Source of the DNA: an uncultured Acidobacteriota bacterium | Lineage (GTDB): Bacteria; Acidobacteriota; UBA6911 | Assembly (NCBI GenBank): GCA_964534795.1 | Contig: CAZHQK010000180.1 | Coordinates: 4,395-68,394 of the forward strand | Reading direction: 5' to 3' | DNA: 64,000 nucleotides | In this document: positions 14,532 through 41,756 of the stretch, in pieces | Position numbering within the stretch: the first letter of the stretch is position 1 | How the letters are laid out: every line of letters begins with the position of its first letter | Made by a program: the position numbers and the translations under genes | Notes under the pieces: model-generated | The model's database searches: none | Told to the model about the DNA's origin: nothing | Seen by the model: the letters and a program-made list of their open reading frames with translations, nothing else

Positions 14532-14533
14532 CG

Positions 14534-17113: not shown

Positions 17114-17122
17114 GGTCGCCTC

Positions 17123-23133: not shown

Positions 23134-23739
23134 TCAGAACCGCCCGCCGGGGGAAACGAGCGGTTCCAGCTTGTCGGACTTATGACGACGGTAGAAACAC
23201 TCCCGCCGGCTGAGTTCCCCGAACCTGCAATTTTCGCGATAAGAAATCCCGCATTGCAGGCATACCTCATCCGGCCGGGAGCCGTGTTGGACGATCGATG
23301 CAGCCAGACGGTCCAGAAGCTCGGCCGCCCTCTGCAGCTCACCCGGATCGAACCGGCCCAACACCTCGGCCGCCTTGCGGTGCCTGGCCTCCTCGAAGGA
23401 CCGAAGCAGCGCGCGGCTTTCGTCGGTGAGACGGAAGCAGCTGCTGCGCCGATCCTCGGCCCTCTCGGCACGTGTCAGCAGCCGGCGCCGTACCAGCTTC
23501 TCGACCGTCTTGCTGGCGGCGGCGTCGCTGACCCCGAGGAAATCCGCTGCATCGCCGACCGTGTGTTCGCCGGTCGCTGAACCGAAAAACAGCAGCTTGA
23601 GATGAGAAAAACTCAGCGATTCGTCCGCGCTCTCCCGCAGGATCTCCTGCTCGAAAGCGCGGCGGATCGCTGCGGCGAAGACGTGCGCACTGCCCAGAAA
23701 ATCCGTCCGAACCTCGGCACTCCTCGCCTCGCAAGCCAT
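23134..23739 (-). CDS. MarR-family transcriptional regulator with a Cys-rich C-terminal extension, lead gene before aprBA
   Basis: ATG at 23737-23739 with GGAGGAAG upstream. The wHTH region runs LSFSHLKLLFFGSATGEHTVGDAADFLGVSDAAASKTVEKLVRRRLLTR. The C-terminus is ..CLQCGISYRENCRFGELSRRECFYRRH. It lies 17 bp upstream of aprB on the same strand. Confidence 0.6.
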   Translation of the reverse strand: MACEARSAEVRTDFLGSAHVFAAAIRRAFEQEILRESADESLSFSHLKLLFFGSATGEHTVGDAADFLGVSDAAASKTVEKLVRRRLLTRAERAEDRRSSCFRLTDESRALLRSFEEARHRKAAEVLGRFDPGELQRAAELLDRLAASIVQHGSRPDEVCLQCGISYRENCRFGELSRRECFYRRHKSDKLEPLVSPGGRF

Positions 23740-24081
23740 TGAACTTCCTCCATCCCTAAAGCGGGATGAAATCCGGACCCAGACCAACGGCTGGCGTCCG
23801 TCGTTTAACCCTGTCGAATTTAAACTCGATTTAGTCCTCATGCAAGAGTTTTTTTCGAAAATATGGCCAGATCTGGCAGGAAATTATTGTCAAAAGATAT
23901 TAAATCAGCACAAGCACCCGGCCATTTCGGCGATTTGAAAAAGATCGGCGACGCCGAACAGCCGACGGCAGGAAAGACTTCCCATGGCTGGGCCGCGACC
24001 CTCGATCCGGGATCGGAAGTCTCATTTGGCTCACTCTGAGACCGATTTGCCCTGCATTGCTCGGCGATAGGCCGCGTTTGC

Positions 24082-24150: not shown

Positions 24151-24608
24151 CGCCTGAAGGTCCGGCGGGAACCTGTGAGCAGGACTGGTTCCTGAAGTGC
24201 TCCGGCCCGGGTCGAGTCGGAGAGCGGAGGCAGCGAGGTCATCATCATCGATTCGGCAAGCTATGAAAACGGCCCGTGATCGCCATCATCGCATTACCCG
24301 TCATGGCGGACCCCGCGACACATCCCCTCGACTCCTCCCCCGTCGGCCCGGGGCAGCGCTGCGGCCTGTTCCTGCGATAGAGAAAGGCAGGTGTACGACG
24401 CTCGCCCCGAGCTCGGAGCCGCGGCGCTCCGGGCTCGTCGCGCGATGACAGGCGCAGGCACCGGCTGAGCCGGCCGACGTGCCCGGCAACCCGGTCTCGA
24501 GGCTACCGACGCCTTCGCATCGGGCCGGCGGCCGGACGCTCCCGCCGGGCGCGAGACAAGCCGGGGCCGAAGCCATCGACCAGAAGTCATATTCGCGAGA
24601 GACACAAT

Positions 24609-25868
24609 ATGAATGCCAAAGCAAAACCCATTCTAGTAATCGGCGGGGGCATAGCCGGGATGACGGCGGCGGTCGAAGCCGCCGAGGTAGGGTATCCCGT
24701 CGTCCTCGTGGAAAAGGAAGCGTATCTGGGAGGACGCGTAATGCGCACCTACCGCTACTTCCCGAAGATGTGTCCCCCGACCTGCGGCTTCGAAATCAAC
24801 GTGCGCCGGATCCGGCAGAATCCCAGAATCACGGTCCACACGCTTGCGACCGTGGAGGAGATCACCGGCCGCGCGGGTGCTTTCCGCGCCAGAATCAGGA
24901 AGCGCCCCCGATACGTGACCGGCCGGGAACCGCTGAGCGATTCCCTGGCGCAACAGCTGACCTCCGAGCGTCCCGACGACTTCAACCTGGGCATGGGCCG
25001 GACCAAGGCACTCTATCTGCCGCACGCAATGGCCTACCCGCCGCAGTATGTGCTGGACCGGGACGCCCTCTCCGCAGCCGACGCCGAAATCCTCAGGAAA
25101 AACGCCGCCGGGGCCGTCGATCTCGACATGGCCGAAGAGGAGCTGCTGGTCGAGGCGGGCACCGTCATCATCGCCACCGGATGGCGCCCGTATGACGCCG
25201 CCAAGCTCGACCATCTGGGCTTCGGAAAATGCCGCAACGTCATCACCAATGTCATGATGGAACGGCTGGCGGCGCCCGGCGGGCCGACGGGCGGAGAGAT
25301 CCTGCGGCCCTCCGACGGCAGGAAAGCGGAGAACGTGGCCTTCGTCCAATGCGCCGGTTCGCGCGACGAGAACCATCTTCCCTACTGCTCGGCCGTCTGC
25401 TGCATGGCTTCGCTCAAGCAGGCCAGGTACCTGAGGGAAAAGAACGCGAACGCCAAGGCGACCATCTTCTACATCGATATCCGCGCCGTGGGCCGCCTCG
25501 AGAAGTTTTATTACGACATGCTCGAGGATGCCAACGTCACCTATGTCAAGGGAAAGGTGGCCGGAATCAGCGAAGAACCCGGAAGCGGCAACCTGATCCT
25601 GGACGTGGAGGACACGCTGGCCGGCAGAAAGCAGCATCGCGGATTCGATCTTGCGGTCCTGGCGACCGGCATGGTGCCCAATACCGCCGATGCCGGCCTG
25701 CCCCTGCAGCTCCAATGCGACGACTACGGTTTCATCGACGGCACCACGGACATCGAGGGCGTGTATGCGGCCGGCTGTGTCAAGCGCCCGTGCGACGTTG
25801 CGCGTACGACCAAGGACGCCACCGCGGCTGCGTTGAAGGCCATCCAGTGCCTTCAGAGGGGAGAATGA
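24609..25868 (+). CDS. qmoA: QmoA (HdrA-like FAD flavoprotein)
   Basis: 419 aa with an FAD Rossmann start (ILVIGGGIAGMTAAVEAAE) and the HdrA-like Cys cluster (CAGSRDENHLPYCSAVCC). Confidence 0.9.
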   Translation: MNAKAKPILVIGGGIAGMTAAVEAAEVGYPVVLVEKEAYLGGRVMRTYRYFPKMCPPTCGFEINVRRIRQNPRITVHTLATVEEITGRAGAFRARIRKRPRYVTGREPLSDSLAQQLTSERPDDFNLGMGRTKALYLPHAMAYPPQYVLDRDALSAADAEILRKNAAGAVDLDMAEEELLVEAGTVIIATGWRPYDAAKLDHLGFGKCRNVITNVMMERLAAPGGPTGGEILRPSDGRKAENVAFVQCAGSRDENHLPYCSAVCCMASLKQARYLREKNANAKATIFYIDIRAVGRLEKFYYDMLEDANVTYVKGKVAGISEEPGSGNLILDVEDTLAGRKQHRGFDLAVLATGMVPNTADAGLPLQLQCDDYGFIDGTTDIEGVYAAGCVKRPCDVARTTKDATAAALKAIQCLQRGE

Positions 25869-25872
25869 ACCG

Positions 25873-28146
25873 ATGAAAGACAAGATCGGCGTCTTTATCT
25901 GCACGGGATACGGGATCGCGGAAGCGCTCGATATCGAAGCGCTGCGCAAGGTGGTCACCTCGGAATGCAAGGTGCCCTTCTGCAAGACGGTGGATTCCTG
26001 TGAGGGGCCCGCCCTGCAAGGGATCATCGAGGATATTGCCAGGGAAGGCCTGGCCAAGGTCGTCATTGCCGGGATTTCGCCGCGCCGCTACCCGGACGTC
26101 GCTTTCCCCGAGGGCGTCGTCGTCGAAAGGTTTGCGCTCCTCGAACACGTGGTATGGACGCAACCGGCGCGCGACGAGGATACGCAGATGATGGCGGAGG
26201 ACTACCTGCGCATGTACGTCACCAAGGTGCGCGAGATGGAACCTCCCCAGCCCTTCAAGCCGGAAGAAACCCTCGACAAGAGCATCCTGGTGGTCGGAGG
26301 CGGGATCACCGGGATGACCGCGGCGCTCGAAGGCGCCCGGGCCGGGTACCGCGTGCGCCTGGTCGAGAAGAGCGACCGCCTGGGAGGCTGGCTCGCCCGG
26401 CAGCACAAGTCGGTGCCCACCAAGCCGCCTTACAGAGAACTGGAGCCGACGGGGGTCGAGGATCTCATCAAGAAGGTCGAGAGCGACCCGCACATCACCG
26501 TCTACAAGTCGGCCGCCACCGGCCGCATCGCGGGCGCCCCCGGACTTTTCGACGTGACCCTGCATTCGACCGGCAACGGCCGCCCCGCCGGGGAAGTCGT
26601 CGATACCTTCCGCGTGGGGGCGATCATCCAGGCGACCGGCTGGAGACCGGCGGAACTCCGAGATACCCTGCCCTACGGCCGGCTGCCCGACGTCATCCGC
26701 AACGTCGAGCTGGAAGAAATGGTGCGCAGCCAAGGGCGCATCATCCGCCCTTCGGACGGCAGGGAGGTCAAGAGCATCGCCTTCATCCAGTGCGGCGGAT
26801 CGCGGCGCAAGGAACACCATTCCTACTGTTCTTCGATCTGCTGTCTGACCTCGCTCAAGCAGGCCCTCTACCTGCGCGAGCGGCAGAGCGACGGCAAGGC
26901 TTACATCTTCTACGAATTCATCCGGACGCCGGGGCACTACGAAGATTTCTACCGCCGGGTGCAGCAGGATCCCGGCGTGTTCCTCACCAAGGGTGAGGTG
27001 ACCGACGTGACCCGCGAGTCGGACGGCTCGTTGCTGGTCACGGCCCAGGACACCATGCTGGGCGAGCGGATCCAGGTCCGGGTCGACCTGGTCGTGCTCG
27101 CGGCCGGGATGGTGCCGAATTCGGCCGACGGCGAGGCTATCCGGGCGCTGCACGACGCCCAGGCTACGGCGACGCGCGGCGAATCGGAGGTGCAGCGCAA
27201 GGAGGCCGCCGAAAAGGCCGAACGGCTCAAGCACCACGAGGGCACGGAGATACTCAACCTGGTCTACCGCCAGGGACCCGACCTGCCGATCCTGCAGTAC
27301 GGCTTTCCCGACTCCCATTTCATCTGCTTCCCCTATGAGAGCCGGCGCACGGGAATCTATCCCGCGGGCAGCGTACGCCAGCCCATGGACGGAGTCGGCG
27401 CCCGCGAGGACGCGGCCGGTGCCGCCTTGAAGGCAATCCAGTGCGTGGAGATGACCGCCAGGGGCGAAGCGGTCCACCCGCGCGCGGGCGACAAATCCTA
27501 CCCTGAATTCTTCCTCCAGCGCTGCACCCAGTGCAAGCGCTGCACCGAGGAATGCCCCTTCGGCGTGCTCAACGAGGACGTCAAGGGCACCCCCCTGCTC
27601 CAGGCCACCCGCTGCCGGCGCTGCGGCGTCTGCATGGGGGCCTGCCCCGAGCGCATCGTGTCCTTCAAGGACTATTCGGTGCATATCATCGCCGAGATGA
27701 TCAAGGCGGTGGAGGTTCCGGACGAAGCCGAGGAAAAGCCGAGAGTCCTGGCCCTGCTGTGCGAAAACGACGCCATCCCCGCCCTGGACCTCGTGGGTCT
27801 GCACCGCCTCCATTACAACCCGTTCGTGCGCGTCGTCCCGGTGCGCTGCCTGGGCTCGGTCAACGCCGTCTGGGTCTCCGAGGCGATTTCGGCCGGCTAC
27901 GACGGCGTGCTGCTGGTGGGCTGCAAATACGGCGACGATTACCAGTGCCACTTCATCAAGGGGAGCGAGCTGGCGTTCACCCGCGGCGGGAACATCCGGG
28001 AAAAGCTCAAGCAGATGTCCATGGAGAACGAGAGGGTCGAACTCCACCAGCTACAGATCAACGAGTATGACAAGCTGCCGATGATTTTCGACAACTTCAT
28101 GAAAGTCATCGAAAAGTTCGGCATGAATCCATTCAAGGGCATGTGA
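25873..28146 (+). CDS. qmoB: QmoB (HdrA-like flavoprotein with ferredoxin and MvhD-like C-terminal domains)
   Basis: 757 aa with FAD motifs, the HdrA Cys cluster, 2x CxxCxxCxxxCP and an MvhD-like tail. Confidence 0.9.
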   Translation: MKDKIGVFICTGYGIAEALDIEALRKVVTSECKVPFCKTVDSCEGPALQGIIEDIAREGLAKVVIAGISPRRYPDVAFPEGVVVERFALLEHVVWTQPARDEDTQMMAEDYLRMYVTKVREMEPPQPFKPEETLDKSILVVGGGITGMTAALEGARAGYRVRLVEKSDRLGGWLARQHKSVPTKPPYRELEPTGVEDLIKKVESDPHITVYKSAATGRIAGAPGLFDVTLHSTGNGRPAGEVVDTFRVGAIIQATGWRPAELRDTLPYGRLPDVIRNVELEEMVRSQGRIIRPSDGREVKSIAFIQCGGSRRKEHHSYCSSICCLTSLKQALYLRERQSDGKAYIFYEFIRTPGHYEDFYRRVQQDPGVFLTKGEVTDVTRESDGSLLVTAQDTMLGERIQVRVDLVVLAAGMVPNSADGEAIRALHDAQATATRGESEVQRKEAAEKAERLKHHEGTEILNLVYRQGPDLPILQYGFPDSHFICFPYESRRTGIYPAGSVRQPMDGVGAREDAAGAALKAIQCVEMTARGEAVHPRAGDKSYPEFFLQRCTQCKRCTEECPFGVLNEDVKGTPLLQATRCRRCGVCMGACPERIVSFKDYSVHIIAEMIKAVEVPDEAEEKPRVLALLCENDAIPALDLVGLHRLHYNPFVRVVPVRCLGSVNAVWVSEAISAGYDGVLLVGCKYGDDYQCHFIKGSELAFTRGGNIREKLKQMSMENERVELHQLQINEYDKLPMIFDNFMKVIEKFGMNPFKGM

Positions 28147-28197
28147 GCGCGGCGCGACCGCCCGCGGCTCGAGAACCATGCAGGGTGCGGAGGAAAC

Positions 28198-29469
28198 ATG
28201 ACAGTGGAAAGTGCCGTCAAGCGGGAAAGCGGCGCAGGAATGCCGGTGCCTGCGGCGCCGGGGCCCGGGCTTTCCGGCGACACGCGACCGGTGCGCATCG
28301 AACCGGACCTGGAGTTCATCCGTGCGCTTATCAGCGGGGGGGCGGACACGGTCAAGAAGTGTTTCCAGTGCGGAACGTGCTCGGCGACCTGCACCCTTTC
28401 GCCCGATCCCGAGCCGTTTCCGCGCAAGGAAATGGCCTGGGCGCTGTGGGGCTGGAAGGACCGGCTGGTGCGCGATCCCGATGTCTGGCTGTGCCACCAG
28501 TGCCAGGACTGCTCCGTTCGCTGCCCGCGGGGCGCGCGGCCGGGTGACGTGCTGGCGGCGGTGCGCCAGGAATGCGTCGCGCACTATGCCTTCCCCCGTT
28601 TCCTGGCGCGCTGGATGAGCCGGCCGCAGTACGTCCCCCTGCTCCTGGCCATCCCCATAGCACTTCTGACCTTGGCCCTGCTGCTGCGGGATACGCTCGC
28701 GGCCGCCCTGGGTTTCTCACCTCAACCGGGGGCGCGCATCATCTATGCCTACTCGAGCGTCTTCCCGCACTGGCTGCTGAACGGCTTCTTCGGTCTCTTC
28801 AGCCTGCTGGCATTGCTCGCCATGCTGGTGAGCGCCCGGCGCTTCTGGCGGGCTCTCGAAGAAGCGGATCGCATGCCGCGCATCCGGGGGCTTGCCGCCA
28901 GCACCTGGGCGGCGCTGCGCAGCATCGCCACGCACAGGAATTTCGACCTGTGCACGGCGGCGCGGCCGCGCTACCTTTCCCATCTCTGCGTGCTCGCCGG
29001 TTTCGTAGCCCTGACGCTGGTCACGCTATGGGTGATCACCGCCGAATACAACCCCCTGATCCGCTCCGACTTCGTCTATCCTTTCGGCTTCTGGAATCCG
29101 TGGAAGATGCTGGCCAACGTGGGCGGAATCGCCGTGCTGGCCGGCTGCCTGCTCATGGCCTGGGAGCGCCTGCGCGAGGGCGGCTCGATGGGCATCGGGG
29201 CCTATTTCGACTGGGTGCTGCTCGCCGACCTGTTTCTGGTCGTCGCCACGGGATTCGCCACCGAGGTGCTGCACTACCTGCGCCTGGAACCCCACCGACA
29301 TATCGCCTACTTCACGCACCTGGTCTTCGTCTTCACGCTGCTGATCTACCTGCCCTATTCGAAACTGGCCCACCTGGTCTACCGCGCCCTGGCCATGATC
29401 CATGCCGACCGCATCGGGCGCATCCTGGGAAGCGCCCCGACTCCGGGCGCTGAAAGGACGGGGCGGTGA
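28198..29469 (+). CDS. qmoC: QmoC (HdrC-like Fe-S domain fused to an HdrE/NarI-like cytochrome b membrane domain)
   Basis: 423 aa with an N-terminal CFQCGTCSATC...CHQCQDCSVRCPRG, then 5-6 TM helices. Confidence 0.85.
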   Translation: MTVESAVKRESGAGMPVPAAPGPGLSGDTRPVRIEPDLEFIRALISGGADTVKKCFQCGTCSATCTLSPDPEPFPRKEMAWALWGWKDRLVRDPDVWLCHQCQDCSVRCPRGARPGDVLAAVRQECVAHYAFPRFLARWMSRPQYVPLLLAIPIALLTLALLLRDTLAAALGFSPQPGARIIYAYSSVFPHWLLNGFFGLFSLLALLAMLVSARRFWRALEEADRMPRIRGLAASTWAALRSIATHRNFDLCTAARPRYLSHLCVLAGFVALTLVTLWVITAEYNPLIRSDFVYPFGFWNPWKMLANVGGIAVLAGCLLMAWERLREGGSMGIGAYFDWVLLADLFLVVATGFATEVLHYLRLEPHRHIAYFTHLVFVFTLLIYLPYSKLAHLVYRALAMIHADRIGRILGSAPTPGAERTGR

Positions 29470-29486
29470 CCCCGAAGGAGAAAACC

Positions 29487-29855
29487 ATGAACGAAACGCC
29501 GCAAAGTTCGCGCAGTGTTCTTTTCCTGGCCGTCCCGGCGCTGATCCTGCTGCTGCCTTTCGCCTACAGCCTGGTCGCCTACGTGGCCGGCGCGGACACC
29601 GCCGCCGCCCGGCCCTTCCTCGAAAAGCCCGATCCCAAGTATCGGAACTGCGTGCGCGAAACCGCCTACATGCGTTTCCATCACTGGGAGCTGCTCAGAA
29701 CGGTGCGCGAGGAGGTGGTGCGCCAGGGGAAGCCGAGCGAGACGGGCCTGAAGCAATGCAAGAATTGTCACACGAGCAGGGAGCGCTTCTGCAATCAGTG
29801 CCACAACGCGGTCACTCTGAACCCCGACTGTTTCGGATGCCATTACTATCCGTGA
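29487..29855 (+). CDS. DsrJ-like membrane-anchored triheme cytochrome c (paralog)
   Basis: ATG at 29487 with AAGGAGA upstream, and an N-terminal TM anchor. It has three CxxCH (CKNCH, CNQCH, CFGCH) and aligns with DsrJ, including the extra Cys (RNCVRETAYM vs GTCVAPTDYM). Its start is 18 nt after the qmoC stop. Confidence 0.75.
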   Translation: MNETPQSSRSVLFLAVPALILLLPFAYSLVAYVAGADTAAARPFLEKPDPKYRNCVRETAYMRFHHWELLRTVREEVVRQGKPSETGLKQCKNCHTSRERFCNQCHNAVTLNPDCFGCHYYP

Positions 29856-29907
29856 GCACGCAGCCGGCGGTCGGCAAATGCAAGCAGCCTTGGAGGGTCG
29901 AGCGAAA

Positions 29908-30633
29908 ATGGACAGAAGAGAATTTCTGACGGCCGGCGGGGGCCTCCTGTTGGCGGGCGCCGCCGGCACCTATGCGGTACGGTTGCTCACGCAGGCCGGG
30001 GCCGTCGAAGCGGTCACGGCAGGGCGGCACAGGTGGGGCATGGTAGTCGACCTGCGCAAGTGCCGACCGGACTGCACGGCGTGCCTGGAGGCCTGCAGGC
30101 TGGAAAACAACACGGCTTCCGTCGGCGACGCGCGCTGGGACGTGCATTGGATCCGCAAGGTCCATGTCAAGCCGAAGAACGGCGGGGCCGAGCGCTCCGT
30201 GGTGCTCCTGTGCAACCATTGCGACCATCCGCCGTGCGCCCAGGTGTGCCCCGTGCAGGCCACTTACAAGCGTGCGGACGGCATCGTCATCGTGGACCAT
30301 CACCGCTGCATCGGGTGCCGCTACTGCATGATCGCCTGCCCCTACAACGCCCGCTACTTCAATTTCAAGGAAAGCGAGGAGTGGCCCAACAAGGAGTTCC
30401 CCAAACGCTCGCACGGCGTCGCGGAAAGCTGCACGCTGTGCGCCCATCTCCTCGACGTCGGCAAGAAACCGGCGTGCGTCCAGGCCTGCGAGCGCGCACA
30501 GGCCGGAGCGCTCGTCGTGGGCGACCTGAACGATCCGCAGAGCGAGATTTCCAGGTTGGTTTCCGAGAATTCCGTCAAACGGCTCAGGGAGGATCTGGGC
30601 ACGGAGCCCAAGGTTTACTACATCGGATTATGA
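29908..30633 (+). CDS. DsrO-like Tat-exported 4Fe-4S ferredoxin subunit (NrfC/PsrB family)
   Basis: Tat signal MDRREFLTAGGGLLLAGAAG, a GGAGGG RBS and four ferredoxin-type Cys clusters. Confidence 0.8.
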   Translation: MDRREFLTAGGGLLLAGAAGTYAVRLLTQAGAVEAVTAGRHRWGMVVDLRKCRPDCTACLEACRLENNTASVGDARWDVHWIRKVHVKPKNGGAERSVVLLCNHCDHPPCAQVCPVQATYKRADGIVIVDHHRCIGCRYCMIACPYNARYFNFKESEEWPNKEFPKRSHGVAESCTLCAHLLDVGKKPACVQACERAQAGALVVGDLNDPQSEISRLVSENSVKRLREDLGTEPKVYYIGL

Positions 30634-30655
30634 CGGTTCACCTGTGAGGGACGGC

Positions 30656-31852
30656 ATGGAAGTCAAATACGAGCGCATCGCAGGAAACTCCAGGCACTAT
30701 TACCTGGCGCTGGCGGCCTTCGCCGCCGTCGGCCTGGCGGGGGTGCTGTGCACCTTCTGGGTTCTCGGTCAGGGGCTGTGGGTGACCGGCATGTACAACC
30801 GCGTGCCCTGGGGCCTGCAAATCGTCATGGCAATCTATTACATCGGGCTCTCGGCGGGCTCCCTGGTGATCTCCGGCCTCTACGGCGTCTTCGGCAAGCT
30901 GGAGTACAAGCCTTTCGCCAGAACCGCCGTCTATCTCGGCATGCTCTTCATGATCGCCGGCCTGCTTTCCATTCTCACCGACCAGGGCCGGATGGACCGG
31001 GTCTTCGTCCAGCCCTTCGTCCATTTCAACCTCCTCTCCCTGTTCTCGATCAACCCGATGCTGTATATCAGCTACATCCTCATCTGCATCGTCTACCTCT
31101 ACGCGCTCTTCCGGGACAAAAAGAAGCTCACCCGGGTCGTCGCCACCCTGGCCTTCGCCTGGGCTTTCGGCGTCCACAGCGGCACGGGGGCGATCTTCGG
31201 CTTCGGTCCCAGAACGCTCTACGATTCGCCGCTGCTGCCGGCCAGCTTCGTCGTGGCCGCCATGGCCTCGGGCACCGGCCTGATGATCGCCTTGCTCGTC
31301 GCCCTCTTCCGCCTCACCCGCAGGCACCTGGATGACGAGCTGGTCTTCGGGCTGGGACGCCTGCTGGCGCTGTTCGTTCTGGTGGTCCTCTATTTCCTGG
31401 CGGTGGAAAACCTGTATTTGGTTTACCAGGTGGAGTGGCGCGAGGCGGCCCTATACTACCTCTTCGGCGGATTCCACAGCGTGATCTTCTGGGTCGGCCT
31501 CATCGGGCTCGGCTGCGCCGTGCCGCTCTTCCTGCTGTTTTACCCGCGGACCTCGAAGTCGATCCCCTGGGTGGTGACGGCGGGCTGCCTGGTGGTTTTG
31601 GGAGTGCTGTGCGAGCGGTACGTGATCGTGATCCCCGGCCTGACGCGCCCGCCGGAGATTTTCCCCGGGATGGAAGTCAGCGGGCCGGGCCTGATCGAAG
31701 GGGTGGCGAGCTACGCGCCGACGCTCGTCGAATTCTGCCAGGCGCTGGGGGTGCTGGGAATCATCGGATTCCTGTTCCTCGCGGGCCTGAAGGTGTTCAA
31801 GTTGTTGCCGGCCGAGGCGCGCATCGCGAAACAGGCTGGCCCGGCCAGTTGA
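30656..31852 (+). CDS. DsrP-like NrfD/PsrC-family integral membrane subunit
   Basis: About 398 aa with 10 predicted TM segments. A GAGGGA RBS precedes the ATG at 30656. The gene is 11 nt from the preceding Fe-S subunit gene. Confidence 0.8.
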   Translation: MEVKYERIAGNSRHYYLALAAFAAVGLAGVLCTFWVLGQGLWVTGMYNRVPWGLQIVMAIYYIGLSAGSLVISGLYGVFGKLEYKPFARTAVYLGMLFMIAGLLSILTDQGRMDRVFVQPFVHFNLLSLFSINPMLYISYILICIVYLYALFRDKKKLTRVVATLAFAWAFGVHSGTGAIFGFGPRTLYDSPLLPASFVVAAMASGTGLMIALLVALFRLTRRHLDDELVFGLGRLLALFVLVVLYFLAVENLYLVYQVEWREAALYYLFGGFHSVIFWVGLIGLGCAVPLFLLFYPRTSKSIPWVVTAGCLVVLGVLCERYVIVIPGLTRPPEIFPGMEVSGPGLIEGVASYAPTLVEFCQALGVLGIIGFLFLAGLKVFKLLPAEARIAKQAGPAS

Positions 31853-31894: not shown

Positions 31895-31920
31895 GCATGC
31901 CGGCCCTCGCGCCGGCATGC
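31895..31920. other. perfect 10-bp palindromic hairpin between convergent genes
   Basis: gcatgccggc cctcgc gccggcatgc. It lies between the NrfD-like gene 3' end and the CoADR-rhodanese 3' end, with no U-tract on either side. Confidence 0.4.
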
Positions 31921-31921
31921 C

Positions 31922-33574
31922 TCAGGGATTGAATCCGCAATAGGTCACATACCCGCCCGACAGAGTGCCTGCCCGGAAGCCGTGCTGCACCAGAATGCGC
32001 ACGGCCGTATAGGAGCGCTCGCCGATGGCGCAATAGACCAAAAGCTCGCGGTCGCGCGGCAGCTCGGCGAGCCGGTCGCGCAGATCGCCGAGCGGAATGT
32101 TGACCGCCCCGTCGAGATGGTCCGCGGCGAACTCGAAGGGCTCGCGCACGTCGATCAGCAGCGCGTCCGTGCTCGCCAAACCACTCCAGCCGGCTGCGGG
32201 CATATCTCCGCGCAGCACGTTGGCCGCGACCATTCCCGCGAGATTCACCGGGTCCTTGGCACTGCCGAACTGGGGAGCGTAGCATAGCTCGCACTCCTCC
32301 AGATCGAAGACCGTCCCATTCTTCTGCAAAGCCATCGCGATCACGTCGATGCGCTTGTCCACGCCCCCTTCCCCCGTCGCCTGGGCCCCCAGAATCCTCC
32401 CCTCCGGTCGGGAGAAGATGAGCTTGATGTGCATCCGCTTGGCGCCCGGGTAGTAGGAAGCATGCTGGTATGGGTGCAGGTAGACGACTTCGTAGTCGCG
32501 CACGCCGTGCTGCTTCAGGACCTTTTCGCTCGCGCCCGTCATGGCGACGGTCATGCCGAAGATGCCGCAGACGGCCGTGCCCTGGACGCCGCGAAAGCGC
32601 GCGTTGCGGCCGCATATGGCATCGGCCGCGACACGCCCCTGGCGGTTTGCCGGCCCGGCGAGCGGCATCAGGCACCATCTGCCGGTGACCGCGTGGCGCA
32701 CTTCCACGGCATCGCCGACGGCCCAGATCGCCGGATCGCTCGTGCGCATGGACTCGTCGACGCGGATGCCGCCGAGCTCCCCGATCTCCAGTCCCGCAGC
32801 ACGCGCGAGCGCGACCTCGGGCTTGACCCCGATCGCCAGGATTACGATATCGGCGGTCAGCGACGCGCCGCCTGCGGTGCGCACGACCAGCCCGCCGCGC
32901 GCGTCCGCTTCGAAGCCCGTCACCCCGTCCCCCAGATGGAGGTCCACCCGGTTCTCTTCCAGACAGCGCATCACCGGCTCTGCCATTTCGCCATCCAGAG
33001 GAGCCATCACCTGCGGCAGGACGTCGACGACGGTCACCGCCAGGCCGCGACGCACCAGATTCTCCGTCATCTCGAGACCGATATAACTGCCGCCGACCAC
33101 GACCGCCTTGCGCGCCCGGCGCGCCGCGATCCATTCCCGGATCTCGCGACTGTCGGGGATGGTGCGCAGCGAGAAAATCCCGGGAAGGTCGATTCCGGGG
33201 AGGGGCGGGCGCAAGGGAGCGGCGCCGGGAGCGAGAACCAGTGCGTCGTATCCTTCGCGGTATTCCCCGCCGGTCGCACCGTCCCGGACGACGAGCTCGC
33301 GCCGCCGCCGATCGATGGCGGTCGCTTCGTGCAGGACGCGCACGTCGATGTTGAATCGCCGGCGGAAAAGATCGGGCGACACCATCAGCAAATCGTCCTC
33401 GTCCGGAATGACACCGCCGACGTAATAGGGAAGCCCGCAGTTCGCAAAGGAAACATACGGGCCGCGCTCGAGCAGAACGATGGCCGCGCCCTCGTCGAGC
33501 CGACGCAGACGCGCAGCGCACGAGGCACCGCCGGCCACTCCACCGACAATGATGACCTTTCTGTTTGTTTCCAT
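31922..33574 (-). CDS. CoA-disulfide reductase-family flavoprotein fused to a C-terminal rhodanese domain (NADH persulfide/polysulfide reductase-like)
   Basis: 550 aa. It has an FAD/NAD(P) Rossmann fold, the redox Cys in SFANCGLPYY, and a C-terminal rhodanese with a catalytic Cys (LLVYCAIGERS). Confidence 0.8.
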   Translation of the reverse strand: METNRKVIIVGGVAGGASCAARLRRLDEGAAIVLLERGPYVSFANCGLPYYVGGVIPDEDDLLMVSPDLFRRRFNIDVRVLHEATAIDRRRRELVVRDGATGGEYREGYDALVLAPGAAPLRPPLPGIDLPGIFSLRTIPDSREIREWIAARRARKAVVVGGSYIGLEMTENLVRRGLAVTVVDVLPQVMAPLDGEMAEPVMRCLEENRVDLHLGDGVTGFEADARGGLVVRTAGGASLTADIVILAIGVKPEVALARAAGLEIGELGGIRVDESMRTSDPAIWAVGDAVEVRHAVTGRWCLMPLAGPANRQGRVAADAICGRNARFRGVQGTAVCGIFGMTVAMTGASEKVLKQHGVRDYEVVYLHPYQHASYYPGAKRMHIKLIFSRPEGRILGAQATGEGGVDKRIDVIAMALQKNGTVFDLEECELCYAPQFGSAKDPVNLAGMVAANVLRGDMPAAGWSGLASTDALLIDVREPFEFAADHLDGAVNIPLGDLRDRLAELPRDRELLVYCAIGERSYTAVRILVQHGFRAGTLSGGYVTYCGFNP

Positions 33575-33607
33575 GGATCTCCCTCAGGCAGGCCGCACGC
33601 ACCCCGG

Positions 33608-34384
33608 TCAGCGGGAAGCGTCGTCCGGCCGGCGATCGAGCGCGCGCCGGGCCGCATCCAGCTTTTCGCGCAGGCGCACCACTTCGCCGATCACCAGCGT
33701 GGCCGGCGGCTTCAAGCCCGCGCGTTCGACCTCGTCCGCAATAGTGGCCAGCGTCGCCGTCACCACCCGCTCGTCGCGCCAGAAAGCCGTCTGGATCATG
33801 GCGGCCGGCGTCTGCGGGCTGCGCCCGCTTTCCATCAGGCGCGCGGCGATGCGCCGGACGTTCTGCACCCCCATGACGAAGACTAGGGTCTCGATCGCGC
33901 TCAGGGCGCGCCAGTCCAGGCGGCCCGGTTCGCCGCGGGCCTCGTGCCCGGTGACGATGGCCACGCACGACGCCGCATCACGGTGGGTCACCGCGATGCC
34001 CGCGCGCAGCGGGGCCGCCAGCGCCGACGAGATGCCCGGGACGACCTCGAAGGGGATGCCGTGCTCCGCGAGAAACTCCGCCTCCTCGCCGCCCCTTCCG
34101 AAAAGGAAAGGATCGCCTCCCTTGAGGCGAACCACCATCTTGCCCTCCTGCGCCTTGCGCACGAGCAGCCGGTGGATCTCCTCCTGGCGCACATCCTGCC
34201 CGCCGACGGCCTTGCCCATGTAAATGCGTTCGGCGCCGGGTCCGACCAGCGCCAGCGTGTCCTCCTGGATCAGCCGGTCGTAAACCACCACGTCGCAAGC
34301 CCGCAAAAGCTCCGCCGCCTTCAAGGTGAGGAGCTCCGGAGGGCCGGGGCCCGCCCCCACCAGGTATACCTTGCCGCTTGTCAT
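33608..34384 (-). CDS. cobA: uroporphyrinogen-III C-methyltransferase (SUMT)
   Basis: VYLVGAGPGPPELLTLKA...GGDPFLFGRGGEE...VVPGISS are SUMT signatures. ATG at 34382-34384 has a GAAGAGG RBS. The track's upstream GTG at 34408 is an alternative. Confidence 0.85.
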   Translation of the reverse strand: MTSGKVYLVGAGPGPPELLTLKAAELLRACDVVVYDRLIQEDTLALVGPGAERIYMGKAVGGQDVRQEEIHRLLVRKAQEGKMVVRLKGGDPFLFGRGGEEAEFLAEHGIPFEVVPGISSALAAPLRAGIAVTHRDAASCVAIVTGHEARGEPGRLDWRALSAIETLVFVMGVQNVRRIAARLMESGRSPQTPAAMIQTAFWRDERVVTATLATIADEVERAGLKPPATLVIGEVVRLREKLDAARRALDRRPDDASR

Positions 34385-34551
34385 CGCCGGCCTCTTCGCC
34401 GAGGGCACTCTTCTTTATCACGCCGCCTCGGGCAGTGCAACACGCGATTGGCCCCCACGGCGACTCTGACACCGGCATTGCGATTCAGATACCGGCAGCC
34501 GAGGGTGAGCCGAAGGCGAAGGCAAGCAGATCCCGCGCGCCGCGCGCGATC

Positions 34552-34598
34552 GCCGGCTTGAAGCAATAAGCCCCCGGTCCGCCACGGCGCGGCGGACC
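34552..34598 (+). repeat. 47-nt hairpin-containing element, copy A, in the leader of the cbiA/dsrN-like gene
   Basis: GCCGGCTTGAAGCAATAAGCCCCCGGTCCGCCACGGCGCGGCGGACC. It is 39/47 identical (ungapped) to copy B. It contains the stems GCTT/AAGC and GTCCGCC/GGCGGAC. Confidence 0.55.
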
Positions 34599-34835
34599 TA
34601 CCAGCCCCGGCAGGGGCCCTGAGCCGGTAGCCGGGGGTGAGCCGGAGGCGAACCCCCGGAAAGGAGCGTTAGATCAGTCGAGCCCCGGAGGGCCGACAGA
34701 CCAGGTTTCTGATTCATCCTTCTGCCGGCCCTTCGGGGCTTGTCGCATGCCGTCACCTTTTCTCCAGGTTCGCTTCCGCTCACCTGGAGCTACCAGCTTC
34801 CGTCCCTCCGGGACGGATATGCGCCGCGCGGAAAC

Positions 34836-34882
34836 GCCAGCTTGAATCAATAAGTTCACCGTCCGCCGCGGTGCGGCGGACC
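34836..34882 (+). repeat. 47-nt hairpin-containing element, copy B
   Basis: GCCAGCTTGAATCAATAAGTTCACCGTCCGCCGCGGTGCGGCGGACC. Both stems are preserved. Confidence 0.55.
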
Positions 34883-38092: not shown

Positions 38093-38257
38093 CCTGCCGC
38101 CCGATCTGCATGGCCGTGCCCGGGCTCTCTTCGAGCCCCAGGCTGCCGACGAGGTCGCAGAGGCGCTGCGCGCCCGCCGTTCCGGCGGCGGGCGCACCGC
38201 CGCCTGCCGGCGGAACCATTCCGTCGGAGCGGCCGTGCCCCGGAGAAAGGAAGCCCG

Positions 38258-39193
38258 ATGACCGCTGCTCTCTATCTGTTTCTCTACGCGATGATCCTGG
38301 TGTTCGCCGCCGGATGCGCCGTCAGAATCTACCGCTACGCGACCGCCCCGATGCACCTGCGCTGGGAGCTCTATCCCGTCCCCCACGAAGAGCCTCACCG
38401 GGTGCGACACGGCGGGTCCTACTTCGAAGCGCCGGATTGGTGGACGCGTCCCGTCCATTTCAACCTCGCAGGCGAACTCAAGTTCATGATCCCCGAGATG
38501 ATCTTTCTCAAGGGACTCTGGGAGTTCAACCGGCCGATGTGGCGGCGCTCCTTCCCCTTCCACTTCGGACTGTACCTGCTCATCGGTACCGCAGCCCTGG
38601 CGGCGGTGGCGGCGGTGCTCGACCTGATCGCCGCGGGGACTTCGAGCACGGGCCTGGGCTGGGCGATCGCCCGGCTCTATACGGTCACCGGACTCGCCGG
38701 AGCGATCCTGTGCGTCGTCGGAGCTCTGGGCCTGTTGCACCGGCGCCTGACCGACCCGAAACTGCGGCTCTATACAACCCCGGGAGACATATTCAATCTG
38801 GTCTTCTTCGTGGTCGCCGTCGCGCTGCTCTTCGCCGGCTTCGCCTTCGGCGGGCCGGACACTCCCGGGCCGGCTGCGATCGTGCGCGGGCTCGTCCGTT
38901 TCGACACCGGTCTCGAGATCCCGGCCACGCTCGCCGTCGGGCTGGCCCTCGCCGGGCTGCTGATCGCCTACATCCCGATGACGCACATGTCCCACTTTAT
39001 CGCGAAGTGGTTCACCTACCACGAAATCCGCTGGGACGACCAGCCGATCGCGCGCAGCCGCAGGCTGGCGCGCAAGCTCGCCGAGCAGCTCGCCTACCGG
39101 CCCACCTGGGCCGCCGCGCACGTAGGGGCCGACGGCAGCAAGACGTGGGCGGACGTCGCGACCACCAATCCGGCTCAAGGAGCGAAGCGATGA
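38258..39193 (+). CDS. DsrM/HdrE-like (NarI-type) membrane cytochrome b, paralog
   Basis: 311 aa with 5 TM helices and His residues positioned as in DsrM/HmeC. Its stop overlaps the next gene's start (ATGA). Confidence 0.75.
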   Translation: MTAALYLFLYAMILVFAAGCAVRIYRYATAPMHLRWELYPVPHEEPHRVRHGGSYFEAPDWWTRPVHFNLAGELKFMIPEMIFLKGLWEFNRPMWRRSFPFHFGLYLLIGTAALAAVAAVLDLIAAGTSSTGLGWAIARLYTVTGLAGAILCVVGALGLLHRRLTDPKLRLYTTPGDIFNLVFFVVAVALLFAGFAFGGPDTPGPAAIVRGLVRFDTGLEIPATLAVGLALAGLLIAYIPMTHMSHFIAKWFTYHEIRWDDQPIARSRRLARKLAEQLAYRPTWAAAHVGADGSKTWADVATTNPAQGAKR

Positions 39194-40800
39194 AGGACAA
39201 GAAGATCGATCTCAAAGACATGTCCCGGACGGAGCGCGAGCCGCTCGTCCATCTGGAGGACGGCGACCTGATGCCCTTGCCGGTTCCCTCAGCCGATGTG
39301 GTGACGGAACGCCGGTGGACGCCTCTTTCCGAGCAGATCCGGGAAAAGTACGAATGCATCCTCGACGACACCTGCGCGGTGAACGTCCCCCGGCCGCAGT
39401 CCAAGGAAGAGGAAGAGGAGCTGGTGCGCAAGTTTCTGTCCGGACTCGACAAGCTCTTCTCCAAGGAAAACAACTGGACCTTCCTGCTGCCGCTCGTGCT
39501 CACCATGGAGCATTGCGCCAAGTGCCAGACCTGCTCGGAAGCCTGCCATATCTACGAAGCCAGCGGCCGCAACGAGCTTTACCGGCCCACCTTCCGCTCC
39601 GAGATCATGCGCCGGCTTTACTACAAGTACGTCAAGCACGGGGGCCTGCTTTCGGCATGGCAGCACGGCGACATCGAGGTCAACTGGCCCCTGGTCGCCA
39701 GGCTGATCGAACTCTCCTACCGCTGCAATCTCTGCCGGCGCTGCGCGCAGACATGCCCCATCGGGGCCGACAACGGCCTCGTGGCCCATGAGCTCAGGAA
39801 GCTCTTCAGCCAGGAGATGGGGATCGCCGCCAAGGAGATTCACGATTCCGGCTCCATGCTTCAACTCAAGGTGGGCTCCTCCACCGGGATGAATGCCCTG
39901 GTGGTCAAGGACAATATCGAGTTCATCGACGAGGACATGTCGGAAAAGACCGGGATCAAGGTCGAGACCCCGTGGGATGTCGAAGGGGCCGACGTCCTGC
40001 TGATTCACAACGCCGGCGAGATCCTGGCGTGGCCGGAGAACCCCGGTGCCTTCGCCGTCATCCTGAACGCCGCGGGCATCAAATGGACCCTGTCGTCCGA
40101 GCTGGCGGGCTACGATTCGATCAACTACGGCGTGTGGTACGACGACGCCCAGTTCGCGCGCGTGGCGCTCAAGCACGCCGAGGCCGCCAGGAAGCTGAAG
40201 GTCAAGAAGATAGTCCTGGGCGAGTGCGGCCACGCGCACAAGTCGCTCTCGGTCATCGCCGACCGCGTCCTCGACGGCGAGTACAACATACCGCGCGAAA
40301 GCTCCATGACCCTGCTGCACGACATCGTGATGAACGGCCGCATCAAGCTGGATCCCTCGAGGAACGATTTCCCCGTCACGCTCCACGACCCCTGCAATCT
40401 CGTGCGTCTCATGGGCGTCGTCGAGCCGCAGCGCGAGATCCTGCGCAAGATCTGCCCGAAGTTCCGCGAAATGGAACCCCACGGCGTGGACAATTACTGC
40501 TGCGGCGGCGGCAGCGGCTTCGCCATCATGAGCCCCAACAATTTCTCCGACTGGCGCTTCCGCGTCGCGGGTCGGAAGAAAATGGAGCAGATCCTGAACG
40601 CGTTCGCGGACTGCCTCGACCCCTCGATCCCCAAGTACCTGTGCGCTCCCTGCAGCAACTGCAAGGGGCAGTTCCGCGACATGTTGGCCTACTATGACAT
40701 GTGGGAAAAGTATCGCATACTGTACGGCGGCCTGGTGGAGCTGATCGTCAACGCCATGGTCGACGTCAAGCCCGGATTCATCGAATGGGAGTGGCATTGA
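39190..40800 (+). CDS. DsrK/HdrD-like Fe-S protein with two CCG domains, paralog
   Basis: ATG at 39190 (MKDKKIDLKDMS...). It has CAKCQTCSEACH, CNLCRRCAQTCP, LHDPCNLVRLMG and YCCGGGSGF. The track ORF 38110..40800 is an upstream artefact extension. Confidence 0.85.
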   Translation: MKDKKIDLKDMSRTEREPLVHLEDGDLMPLPVPSADVVTERRWTPLSEQIREKYECILDDTCAVNVPRPQSKEEEEELVRKFLSGLDKLFSKENNWTFLLPLVLTMEHCAKCQTCSEACHIYEASGRNELYRPTFRSEIMRRLYYKYVKHGGLLSAWQHGDIEVNWPLVARLIELSYRCNLCRRCAQTCPIGADNGLVAHELRKLFSQEMGIAAKEIHDSGSMLQLKVGSSTGMNALVVKDNIEFIDEDMSEKTGIKVETPWDVEGADVLLIHNAGEILAWPENPGAFAVILNAAGIKWTLSSELAGYDSINYGVWYDDAQFARVALKHAEAARKLKVKKIVLGECGHAHKSLSVIADRVLDGEYNIPRESSMTLLHDIVMNGRIKLDPSRNDFPVTLHDPCNLVRLMGVVEPQREILRKICPKFREMEPHGVDNYCCGGGSGFAIMSPNNFSDWRFRVAGRKKMEQILNAFADCLDPSIPKYLCAPCSNCKGQFRDMLAYYDMWEKYRILYGGLVELIVNAMVDVKPGFIEWEWH

Positions 40801-40886
40801 GCGGCGGGCTTTTTTGCCGTGACCTCGCGGCGCCCGTCGTGGACAATAGACCGGGTTTCGGAGCCCGAACGCGAAGGAGGGGATCC

Positions 40887-41606
40887 ATGAAAGACGAACG
40901 AACAGTGATCTGGGGCCGCCGGAGGTTCCTCGCGGAAAGCGCCGGCGCGGCCGCGGCATTGACCTTTGCCCGGGCGGGAGGCGGAGGCCTGTTCGCGCGC
41001 TCGACGGCCGCTGCAGGCGTCAGCCTGCCCCCGCTGCCCTACGCCCAGGGAGCACTTGCGCCCGTCATTTCGGAGAACACCATATCCTTCCATTACGGCA
41101 AGCACCACCTGGCGTACGTCAACAACACCAACAAGCTGATCGCGGGCACCGATCTGGAAAACGCCCCCCTGGAGGAAATCGTCCGGAAAAGTGCCGGGCG
41201 GCCCGAGCGCAGCGCCTTGTTCAACAACGCCGCTCAGGTTTACAACCACAACTTTTACTGGGACAGCATGTCTCCCGCAGGGGGCGGCGAGCCCAAGGGC
41301 AGGATCGCCGAAATGCTGAGGGAGTCGTTCGGCTCCTACGCGAAGTTCGTCGAGGCCTTTTCCGATGCCGCGGCCACGCAGTTCGGCAGCGGATGGGCCT
41401 GGCTCGTGCAGGAGGGAAGCCGGTTGCGCGTGATCAAGACGGCCAATGCCGACACGCCGATCACCATGGGGCTCCGGCCGCTCGTCACCATCGATGTCTG
41501 GGAGCACGCCTACTATCTCGACTACCAGAATCGGCGGGCGGACTACATACGGGCGTTTGTCGACAAGCTGCTCAACTGGAGCTTCGCCGAGAAAAACCTG
41601 GCGTAG
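40887..41606 (+). CDS. sodB: Fe/Mn superoxide dismutase with a Tat signal peptide (periplasmic)
   Basis: RRRFLAESAGAAAAL Tat motif, then HHxxH..., DVWEHAYY and QFGSGWAWL SOD signatures. A GAAGGAGG RBS is present. Confidence 0.85.
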   Translation: MKDERTVIWGRRRFLAESAGAAAALTFARAGGGGLFARSTAAAGVSLPPLPYAQGALAPVISENTISFHYGKHHLAYVNNTNKLIAGTDLENAPLEEIVRKSAGRPERSALFNNAAQVYNHNFYWDSMSPAGGGEPKGRIAEMLRESFGSYAKFVEAFSDAAATQFGSGWAWLVQEGSRLRVIKTANADTPITMGLRPLVTIDVWEHAYYLDYQNRRADYIRAFVDKLLNWSFAEKNLA

Positions 41607-41756
41607 GCGTTCGGGCCGGGCCGATTCCTCGTGCCGATGCCCGCGCCGCCTTGCAGCCCGCTGCCGGCTGTCGTATAAGATCGGACGCACCCCATGATCG
41701 CCTGCCCGGGCCGCAGGCAACAGCGCGCACGCGGCGCGGGAAGAACAGGAGGAATC

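Follow-up and report, generated by a model that had tools for sequence, protein, structure and literature searches.

The 64,000-nucleotide stretch analyzed here (the window; contig CAZHQK010000180.1 of an uncultured Acidobacteriota bacterium) encodes, within a dissimilatory sulfate-reduction island, a coenzyme A-disulfide reductase (CoADR)-rhodanese fusion protein of the Npsr/CoA-persulfide reductase (CoAPR) type. On balance, we favor the view that this reductase was recruited into the acidobacterial sulfate island and that it probably clears or recycles sulfane sulfur around sulfite reduction. Family membership by sequence allows the chemistry to be predicted with high confidence as that of Npsr/CoAPR enzymes, namely, the reduction of sulfane sulfur to H2S at the expense of NAD(P)H. 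The case for recruitment is drawn from gene order in related genomes. The gene (the target gene below) and the parts of its product are located as follows.

31922..33574, minus strand: CoADR-rhodanese fusion gene (Npsr/CoA-persulfide reductase type), 550 amino acids, stop codon within these coordinates
32690..33559, minus strand: FAD/NAD(P)H-binding pyridine nucleotide-disulfide oxidoreductase domain, residues 6-295 (Pfam PF07992, Pyr_redox_2, E 1.4e-57)
32267..32563, minus strand: dimerization domain, residues 338-436 (Pfam PF02852, Pyr_redox_dim, E 6.7e-12)
31943..32179, minus strand: C-terminal rhodanese (sulfurtransferase) domain, residues 466-544 (Pfam PF00581, E 4.7e-15)
33437..33439, minus strand: codon of Cys46, the flavin-site redox cysteine in SFANCGLPYY, aligned to Npsr Cys43
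32030..32032, minus strand: codon of Cys515, the persulfide-carrying rhodanese cysteine, in the loop C-A-I-G-E-R of LVYCAIGERSY, aligned to Npsr Cys531

The open reading frame (ORF) runs from an ATG at 33574-33572 to a TGA at 31924-31922 on the minus strand. Its GC content at third codon positions (GC3) is 0.82, and its codon bias is that of real genes in this 65% GC window (range 62-69%). Long ORFs overlapping it on the opposite strand or in other frames were unsupported and were dismissed as high-GC artifacts. A match to PF00070 (Pyr_redox) at residues 156-230 accompanies the three domains listed, and all four Pfam matches exceed their cut-offs.

The first-pass annotation of this DNA had described a CoADR-type single cysteine (SFANCGLPYY) fused to a rhodanese with its catalytic cysteine, and had proposed conservation of the active-site cysteine as a check. 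Both cysteines, Cys46 and Cys515, are indeed present and align with those of Npsr. Across an alignment of 28 relatives they do not vary, nor do Gly518 and Arg520 in the rhodanese loop. The catalytic motifs in this alignment are invariant both inside and outside the clade to which the target belongs, with no clade-specific change. Cys46 is a single redox cysteine and not part of a CxxxxC disulfide; no other cysteine lies within 5 residues of it. The dimerization domain has the conserved segments HASYYPGA and CYAPQFGSAKD, which are common to Npsr. Conservation with Npsr over segments of both the dimerization and rhodanese domains speaks, indirectly, for the predicted binding of CoA. The second Rossmann strand terminates in Asp (VTVVD), where Npsr has Glu. 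An acidic residue closing this strand generally favors NADH in Rossmann folds, and the Asp thus suggests a preference of the target for NADH.

Enzymes of this architecture had also been credited in the first-pass annotation with the reduction of persulfides or polysulfides by NAD(P)H. This is borne out by the closest solved relatives, 3NTA, 3ICR, 8A56 and 6PFZ: characterized members all use NAD(P)H to reduce persulfides or polysulfide (PMC7969121, PMC9405070). In a search of solved structures, the target matched four rhodanese-fused enzymes end to end: Npsr of Shewanella loihica (3NTA; E 6e-169, 566 bits; 49.7% identity over 541 residues), CoADR-RHD of Bacillus anthracis (3ICR; E 3.5e-160), the CoA-persulfide reductase of Enterococcus faecalis (EfCoAPR, 8A56; E 1.9e-142) and Npsr/NoxA-3 of Archaeoglobus fulgidus (AfNpsr, 6PFZ; E 3e-104, 352 bits). 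CoA-disulfide reductases lacking a rhodanese and NADH peroxidases/oxidases scored far lower than these. Assignment to canonical CoA-disulfide reductase (Cdr) was rejected. The target falls below the cut-offs of TIGR03385 (445.9 versus 578.8 bits) and of the other two NCBIfam equivalogs, NF007123 / NF010037 (342 versus 458 and 328.2 versus 394), and is for this reason filed with the rhodanese-fused persulfide reductases. Its extra rhodanese domain likewise excludes the Cdr architecture of ~440 amino acids without a rhodanese. As judged from its sequence, the target agrees with the Npsr/CoADR-RHD/CoAPR family in every feature that a sequence can reveal. The family is large, with >8000 matches at E<1e-30, and spans Acidobacteriota, Verrucomicrobiota, Chloroflexota, Myxococcota, Nitrospirota, Actinomycetota, Planctomycetota, Proteobacteria and Firmicutes.

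The catalytic cycle of such enzymes has been described in some detail. The rhodanese cysteine accepts sulfur, and bound CoA carries the sulfane over ~25 Å to the flavin-site cysteine (PMC9405070). This rhodanese cysteine is the residue persulfidated in cells, and transfer follows a 'swinging pantothenate arm' model (PMC9405070, PMC7969121). H2S is released, and the resulting Cys-S-S-CoA mixed disulfide is then reduced by FAD and NAD(P)H (PMC9405070, PMC7969121). A role for R513 of EfCoAPR in the rhodanese loop has also been described (PMC9405070). Characterized members accept CoA-, Cys- and GSH-persulfides as well as polysulfide, but CoA disulfide and GSSG are not reduced; reduction of persulfides or polysulfide without activity on these two disulfides was measured for SlNpsr and AfNpsr, and access to the active site in characterized members is limited to small substrates (PMC7969121). 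The physiological role of AfNpsr, which is specific for persulfides and polysulfide, was termed a puzzle by its authors, who proposed for it a protective role similar to that suggested below for the target (PMC7969121).

By analogy, the target would be a homodimeric, FAD-containing, NAD(P)H-dependent persulfide/polysulfide reductase. Cys515 at the surface of the rhodanese domain would take up sulfane sulfur to form Cys-SSH, and a tightly bound CoA would swing its pantetheine arm and accept this sulfur as CoA-SSH. Flavin-side Cys46 would then attack CoA-SSH, releasing H2S and leaving a Cys46-S-S-CoA mixed disulfide, to be reduced by FADH2 that is itself reduced by NAD(P)H. Having been recruited by an acidobacterial lineage into its dissimilatory sulfate-reduction island, the enzyme would clear or recycle zero-valent sulfur arising from sulfite reduction by DsrAB and from re-oxidation of sulfide. 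Such sulfur may form in the pathway itself or where produced sulfide meets oxidants, and related acidobacteria alternate between O2 respiration and sulfate reduction (PMC10564751). CoA persulfide, other low-molecular-weight persulfides and polysulfide are candidate substrates, as may be sulfane derived from thiosulfate. As an outcome, cofactors and thiols would be spared persulfidation and the sulfur would be returned as H2S. The first-pass annotation had named DsrC-trisulfide, thiosulfate or S0 as by-products that the enzyme might handle; any of thiosulfate, S0/persulfide and DsrC-trisulfide may be the substrate, and nothing specific points to DsrC-trisulfide.

A neighbor-joining (NJ) tree of 271 sequences, with Npsr alone (rebuilt from its alignment) as the outgroup, places the target in a 54-tip clade of 64-96% identity. 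The subclade containing the window is supported by an NJ bootstrap of 98%, and all of its members that were sampled are island linked. The hosts are most likely sulfate reducers of the Acidobacteriota/Bryobacterales type, that of the window probably being a Bryobacterales-like sulfate or sulfite reducer. Named clade members belong to the Solibacteraceae (L007) and Bryobacteraceae (P0071). The DsrA of the window has a 100%-identical database entry, its named relatives at 81-82% are Acidobacteria and Bryobacterales metagenome-assembled genomes (MAGs), and the island gene order resembles that of the sulfate-reducing acidobacterial MAG CO124.

Within this clade, dsr, apr or sat genes lie within 10 kb of the target homologue in 11 of 15 distinct contexts, in at least three arrangements. 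The closest relatives retain an order like that of the window: P0001 (96% identity) has sat-dsrN-cobA→target, convergent with P'O'J'-HdrC-like-qmoBA and then marR-aprBA, and P0003 (90%) has a superoxide dismutase gene, dsrK2-dsrM2-sat-dsrN and then cobA→target. In a second order (arrangement A), seen in full in P0018 (70%) and P0042 (68%), the genes run cobA→target→marR→aprB→aprA→CxxCxxCC→qmoA→qmoB→qmoC-like→dsrA. P0016 (68%) agrees with these two up to the contig end within aprA, and all three have a TauE/DVU0150/TauE/DUF4881 cluster and a Cytidylate_kin2 gene upstream. Arrangement A is also found in P0118 (64%), as dsrK2-dsrM2-Rrf2-sat-dsrN followed by cobA→target→marR→aprBA, and in P0006 (71%), as target→marR→aprBA. 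A third order (arrangement B) is present in P0007 and P0013 (70%), which have a dsrL-like gene, dsrC, dsrT, dsrMKJOP, a PF03601 protein gene, a 50-amino-acid ORF and then TauE→target→Alginate_exp, with dsrV and cobA on the opposite strand. Here the target overlaps TauE before it and the next gene after it by 4 bp each, which puts it inside the dsrMKJOP-led operon. P0075 (67%) shows the same order, cut by the contig end. P0026 (67%) is mixed: it has cobA→target, and its dsrP-PF03601-TauE genes lie at a distance of 7-10 kb. The cobA→target pair is found again in L001, L003, L004, L007, L169, L171, L172, L174 and L176. The tightest conserved partner of the target is cobA/dsrWa, or the TauE permease gene in other relatives, and not qmo-JOP'.

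Persistence of the linkage through at least three gene orders, at protein identities of 64-71%, argues that the association has been selected and not merely inherited, and this is the main argument for such selection. Weak support for the proposed role comes from the transcription of a homologue in CO124, recovered from a sulfate-reducing acidobacterial enrichment. In the part of that data set consulted, this homologue (gene 150, NODE_2) received no reads in the oxic state, and its transcription was very low but significant when conditions were anoxic and sulfate-reducing (log2 fold change -4.4, adjusted p 0.025; PMC10564751).

Outside the clade, the linkage disappears. We used 15-31 island proteins of the window in tblastn against loci of 50-70% identity, 80 of them taken from species-representative genomes and a further 80 from metagenomes. 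In the 109 loci that span 8 kb or more and fall outside the clade, no dsrAB, aprAB or sat gene lies within 10 kb, and family-wide linkage to sulfate-reduction genes was accordingly rejected for the 160 loci compared. The difference between 11/15 contexts inside the clade and 0/109 outside (Fisher p = 8e-13) is descriptive only, the contexts being phylogenetically related and the sample favoring long contigs. Homologues in Desulfobacterales / Desulfosarcinaceae (L031, L057) are also without dsr/apr linkage. Co-localization across pathway-bearing organisms, by which Dsr accessories are recognized, is seen in one acidobacterial clade and neither among these homologues nor elsewhere in the loci compared. 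Loss of linkage in relatives had been put forward in the first-pass annotation as evidence against a role in the island. In near relatives, linkage to sulfate-reduction or siroheme genes is kept despite rearrangement, and the annotation is not refuted on this point; the linkage is confined to one clade and missing from the rest of the family. Clustering of the three genes on either side of the 80 reference-genome loci identified a YgaP-like membrane rhodanese near 13 of the 80, mostly directly upstream on the same strand. Other neighbors were SulP permeases (8 loci), ArsR-type regulators (6), sigma-54 activators (4), P-type ATPases (4) and cysteine desulfurase (3).

Several of these observations weigh against recruitment. 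The usual setting of the family is sulfide/persulfide stress, and residence in the island could be an inherited accident of one lineage. The 54-tip clade has a bootstrap of only 62%, and the sampling of its contexts, through 12 look-ups, favored long contigs. Some members have little or no linkage: L007 keeps only TauE-Cytidylate_kin2-cobA→target, L088/L089 keep only TauE→target→dsrV, and the copy in L175 is unlinked. Gene 150 of CO124, the only copy among the entries consulted, sits off the dsr contig (PMC10564751). A promoter/terminator scan found no promoter or canonical terminator around the target gene, whose activity and expression are read from its sequence and its relatives.

These points bear most directly on the alternative that the target is a generic enzyme for detoxification of sulfide or reactive sulfur species, as in heterotrophs, with its place in the island being inherited synteny without function. 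We regard this as unlikely, though it deserves serious consideration. It is in keeping with the ubiquity of the family, which reaches nearly all phyla, with sulfide-stress neighbors and never dsr or apr genes outside the clade, and with the unlinked copy in L175 and the off-island copy seen in the consulted part of CO124. However, linkage that outlasts at least three gene orders at 64-71% identity is hard to explain without selection for co-localization, and the 4-bp overlaps in the dsrMKJOP operon and the repeated cobA→target pair also speak for such selection. More specific to the pathway is the idea of a cytoplasmic NAD(P)H thiosulfate reductase, in which Cys515 would take the sulfane of thiosulfate, sulfite would pass to DsrAB and the flavoprotein would make H2S, with a TauE permease moving thiosulfate or sulfite. 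Rhodanese domains classically take thiosulfate as a sulfane donor, and the product sulfite would fit a place beside dsr and siroheme genes. A TauE/SafE-family gene is translationally coupled upstream of the target in L005, L167, L173, L087 and L088/L089. A related NAD(P)H polysulfide reductase reportedly has thiosulfate reductase activity, going by the title of one study. Thiosulfate turnover by Npsr-type enzymes is nevertheless not reported in PMC7969121 or PMC9405070, no gene for TauE, 698 or a related permease was found in the 64-kb window, and the rhodanese loop is identical to that in enzymes of non-sulfate reducers. Overall, we find this alternative improbable.

It is very improbable that the target acts on protein-bound Dsr sulfane (DsrC trisulfide or a DsrC/DsrAB persulfide) as a soluble, NAD(P)H-linked bypass of DsrMK(JOP). 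Such activity is without precedent, characterized enzymes accepting only small substrates and not reducing even CoA disulfide or glutathione disulfide (PMC7969121). The window has complete DsrMKJOP and DsrM2K2 sets, and the catalytic motifs have not changed in the clade. These facts have to be set against the presence of the target in the dsrC-dsrT-dsrMKJOP operon, near an NAD(P)H-linked dsrL-like gene, in L005 and L167, and against the exposed rhodanese cysteine, which could in principle take sulfur from a protein. Just as poor a prospect, in our estimation, is an oxidative-stress CoA-disulfide reductase or NADH oxidase acting with the nearby superoxide dismutase and cytochrome bd oxidase. 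The genes for these two lie 7-10 kb from the target in the window, and superoxide dismutase is near the target in L004 and L174. NADH oxidase activity is known for AfNpsr, and in the presence of sulfur a mutant of the Thermococcus CoADR is sensitive to oxygen (PMC7969121). The superoxide dismutase and bd genes do not adjoin the target, though, and are missing from most relatives' loci. All Cdr equivalogs score below cut-off (as with TIGR03385 above), and characterized rhodanese-fused members do not reduce CoA disulfide (PMC7969121).

Recruitment of a persulfide/polysulfide reductase into the island, with clearance or recycling of sulfane sulfur, remains the reading we prefer. A bolder version would make the Npsr-like clade a dedicated accessory of the acidobacterial Dsr/Apr pathway, that is, an NAD(P)H-linked soluble reductase converting side-products or intermediates to H2S (plus sulfite). 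We offer it tentatively and consider it rather unlikely. Its substrates may include thiosulfate, trithionate-derived sulfane, S0 and even protein-bound persulfide or trisulfide. If true, the accessory would close a leak in sulfite reduction and tie it to the pyridine-nucleotide pool in parallel to DsrL, and it would explain why sulfate reducers such as Archaeoglobus carry Npsr.

As the enzyme class is well characterized, the protein itself is unsurprising, and the novelty lies in its lineage-specific genomic context. No rhodanese or CoADR gene is included among the dsr-associated genes of Hausmann et al. 2018 (PMC6018796), none is mentioned in the main text of a study on an acidobacterial sulfate reducer (PMC10564751), and a large Dsr synteny study mentions no such gene and rhodaneses only in passing (PMC10504309). 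Within the open-access literature searched, the conserved placement of the target in the sulfate island thus appears to be undescribed. Conserved synteny in abundant peat and soil Acidobacteriota provides a testable handle on the role of Npsr in sulfate reducers. It may also indicate how oxygen-tolerant sulfate reducers dispose of zero-valent sulfur where sulfide meets oxidants.

Pfam scans of the neighboring reading frames revealed a complete dissimilatory sulfate-reduction island around the target. On the minus strand are marR (23137-23883), aprB, aprA, a CxxCxxCC protein gene, dsrA (18262-19452) and dsrB, followed by an 84-amino-acid ORF, dsrC, dsrT (RsbRD_N), dsrM, dsrK, dsrJ, dsrO and dsrP (10594-11763). 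The plus strand carries qmoA (24381) and qmoB, then genes for an HdrC-like Fer4_8 protein and a small protein, and finally those for a second DsrO-like and a second NrfD/DsrP-like protein. The first-pass annotation had placed the target between qmo-JOP' and the siroheme genes, and this is what we see: qmoAB, the HdrC-like gene and J'O'P' lie on one side and cobA, a dsrN-like gene and sat on the other. The features closest to the target are the following.

30644..31852, plus strand: NrfD-family (DsrP-like) membrane subunit, last gene of the qmoA-qmoB-HdrC-like-J'-O'-P' operon (NrfD, E 2.3e-52)
33608..34408, minus strand: cobA/dsrWa-type uroporphyrinogen-III C-methyltransferase, 266 amino acids (Pfam TP_methylase, E 2.9e-54)
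33579..33585, minus strand: Shine-Dalgarno sequence GAGGGAG, 4 nt ahead of the target ATG, from the sequence of the 33-nt spacer in which it lies
31895..31920, no strand: perfect 10-bp GC-rich hairpin GCATGCCGGC-GCGAGG-GCCGGCATGC, 1 nt past the target stop

The NrfD/DsrP-like gene is convergent with the target, an order repeated in L001 and L002. Directly upstream of the target and on the same strand is cobA, whose homologue in acidobacterial dsr clusters was named DsrWa by Hausmann et al. (PMC6018796). Only 33 nt separate the cobA stop from the target ATG. This short spacer, with its Shine-Dalgarno sequence, indicates that the two genes are probably co-transcribed. Divergent from cobA are a dsrN-like amidase gene, sat, dsrM2 and dsrK2, and then the superoxide dismutase and cytochrome bd oxidase genes. 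The hairpin sits between the two convergent genes and is without a T-tract; its fold (-40.5 kcal/mol, z = -1.5) is not more stable than those of shuffled sequences. It is a possible bidirectional terminator, which a terminator scan did not pick up.

The 64-kb window contains no ArsR, CstR, SQR, persulfide dioxygenase, TauE, 698, dsrL or dsrV gene. A sulfide-stress operon of the CstR/BigR/SqrR type was considered for the window and rejected, as no such genes flank the target; ArsR-type regulators and YgaP-like rhodaneses adjoin distant homologues alone. Rfam yielded only sub-threshold matches around the target, to V_AS7 (38.1 bits versus a gathering score of 90) and F6 (32.5 versus 46). The V_AS7 match, a Vibrio antisense RNA model covered over its full length (33375-33543, plus strand, E 8.6e-5), is antisense to the 5' coding part of the target for GGVAGG...SFANCGLPYY. 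It most likely mirrors coding-sequence conservation with a homologous Vibrio gene and is not an RNA gene. The F6 small RNA match falls in the 445 bp that separate the divergent cobA and dsrN-like genes (34409-34853), together with several GC-rich inverted repeats; a sigma-70 scan found no promoter-like site there.

Other features of the island were noted in passing. On the plus strand (24381-31852), qmoA and qmoB are followed by the HdrC-like Fer4_8 gene (28147-29469) and by genes for a 133-amino-acid protein, the DsrO-like protein and the NrfD/DsrP-like protein, with no canonical QmoC. This second J/O/P-like set adds to dsrMKJOP at 10594-15538, and the same order is found in L001 and L002. 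In L169 and L171 there is only a 378-396-amino-acid Fer4_8 'qmoC-like' gene, with dsrA immediately after it. A target homologue lies within ~5 kb of qmoA-, qmoB- and HdrC-like genes in two Terriglobia MAGs that do not belong to the island-linked clade (L013:3651-9000 and L022:4041-9200). These genes share 27-36% identity with those of the window, no apr or dsr is present, and the set may encode a different HdrA-type flavoprotein complex.

A short cobA/dsrWa product (258-266 amino acids, TP_methylase only) is encoded in the window and in the relatives closest to it. In most other clade members it has 533-572 amino acids and an extra region matching PF08100 'Dimerisation' (L171:8268-9965, L172:8262-9962, L174:8281-9999, L176:8369-9970 and L167:13620-15236). 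In many relatives, cobA is flanked by a cluster of TauE / DVU0150-family / TauE / DUF4881 / Alph_Pro_TM genes plus Cytidylate_kin2(+BON) (L167:15568-21653, L169:3880-9043, L171:3009-8175, L172:855-8157 and L007:882-4900). This TauE/DVU0150/DUF4881 cluster, which may be a sulfur-oxyanion transport module, is missing from the whole 64-kb window. The marR gene of the window (23137-23883, minus strand) is directly upstream of aprBA, as in every related island sampled (L169:11799-12413, L170:2601-3206, L171:11753-12397, L172:11796-12401 and L174:12131-12673), and in arrangement A it separates the target from aprB. As a candidate regulator, its MarR-family product may act on apr transcription and possibly also on that of cobA and the target.

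The 84-amino-acid ORF between dsrB and dsrC (16868-17122, minus strand) has a coding-like GC3 of 0.79 and no Pfam match at E<=0.001; a dsrD gene would agree with it in location and length. At 38093-43112 on the plus strand, the dsrM2K2 pair is directly followed by genes for an Fe/Mn superoxide dismutase and cytochrome bd oxidase subunit I. In L004, too, dsrK2 is followed by superoxide dismutase, and in L174 an asparaginase-family gene separates the two. Such an arrangement agrees with reports that sulfate-reducing Acidobacteriota tolerate and respire oxygen. Directly downstream of dsrP is a gene for a PALP-family enzyme of the cysteine synthase or cystathionine beta-synthase type (9055-10332, minus strand), and NifU/Nfu-type and DUF302 genes lie a few kilobases further on (4999-6841, minus strand). 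Through these genes the island may be linked to sulfide assimilation and to the assembly of Fe-S clusters.

Among known systems, Npsr of S. loihica PV-4 (3NTA, 3NT6, 3NTD, 4OCG) is the closest counterpart, with the same three-domain architecture and length as the target. The two share the flavin-site cysteine (43 in Npsr, 46 in the target), the rhodanese cysteine (531 and 515), the C-x-x-G-x-R loop, the HASYYPGA and YAP..GSAKD segments and an acidic residue ending the NAD-binding beta-strand. They differ in a 19-residue insertion in the FAD domain of Npsr, which is missing from the target, and in Cys19, which is invariant in the target's clade and Ala in Npsr. Their settings also differ, as Npsr has been proposed to support sulfur respiration (PMC7969121), whereas the target is found in an acidobacterial sulfate-reduction/siroheme island.

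EfCoAPR (8A56) and B. anthracis CoADR-RHD (3ICR/3ICS) are full-length homologues with the same catalytic cysteine pair. The Arg 5 residues past the rhodanese cysteine is likewise shared (C508/R513 in EfCoAPR, C515/R520 in the target), and the 'swinging pantothenate arm' mechanism of EfCoAPR would be expected for the target too (PMC9405070). In contrast to these Firmicute enzymes, which belong to CstR-regulated sulfide-stress operons, the target has no adjoining CstR-, BigR- or SqrR-type regulator; its neighbor is cobA/dsrWa, joined in relatives by marR-aprBA. AfNpsr (NoxA-3, 6PFZ) is the sole characterized member from a dissimilatory sulfate reducer. It is much further from the target in sequence (352 bits, versus 566 for Npsr of S. 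loihica) and is distinguished by a gating loop and strict NADH use. Finally, the target can be compared with DsrN, DsrV and DsrWa, the siroheme accessories of dsr clusters. It is paired with a DsrWa-type methyltransferase gene and lies near a dsrN-like amidase gene, and in relatives it adjoins a gene for a DsrV-type precorrin-2 dehydrogenase. However, these three proteins serve tetrapyrrole biosynthesis and have a different fold and chemistry; the target is a neighbor of this set and not a member of it.

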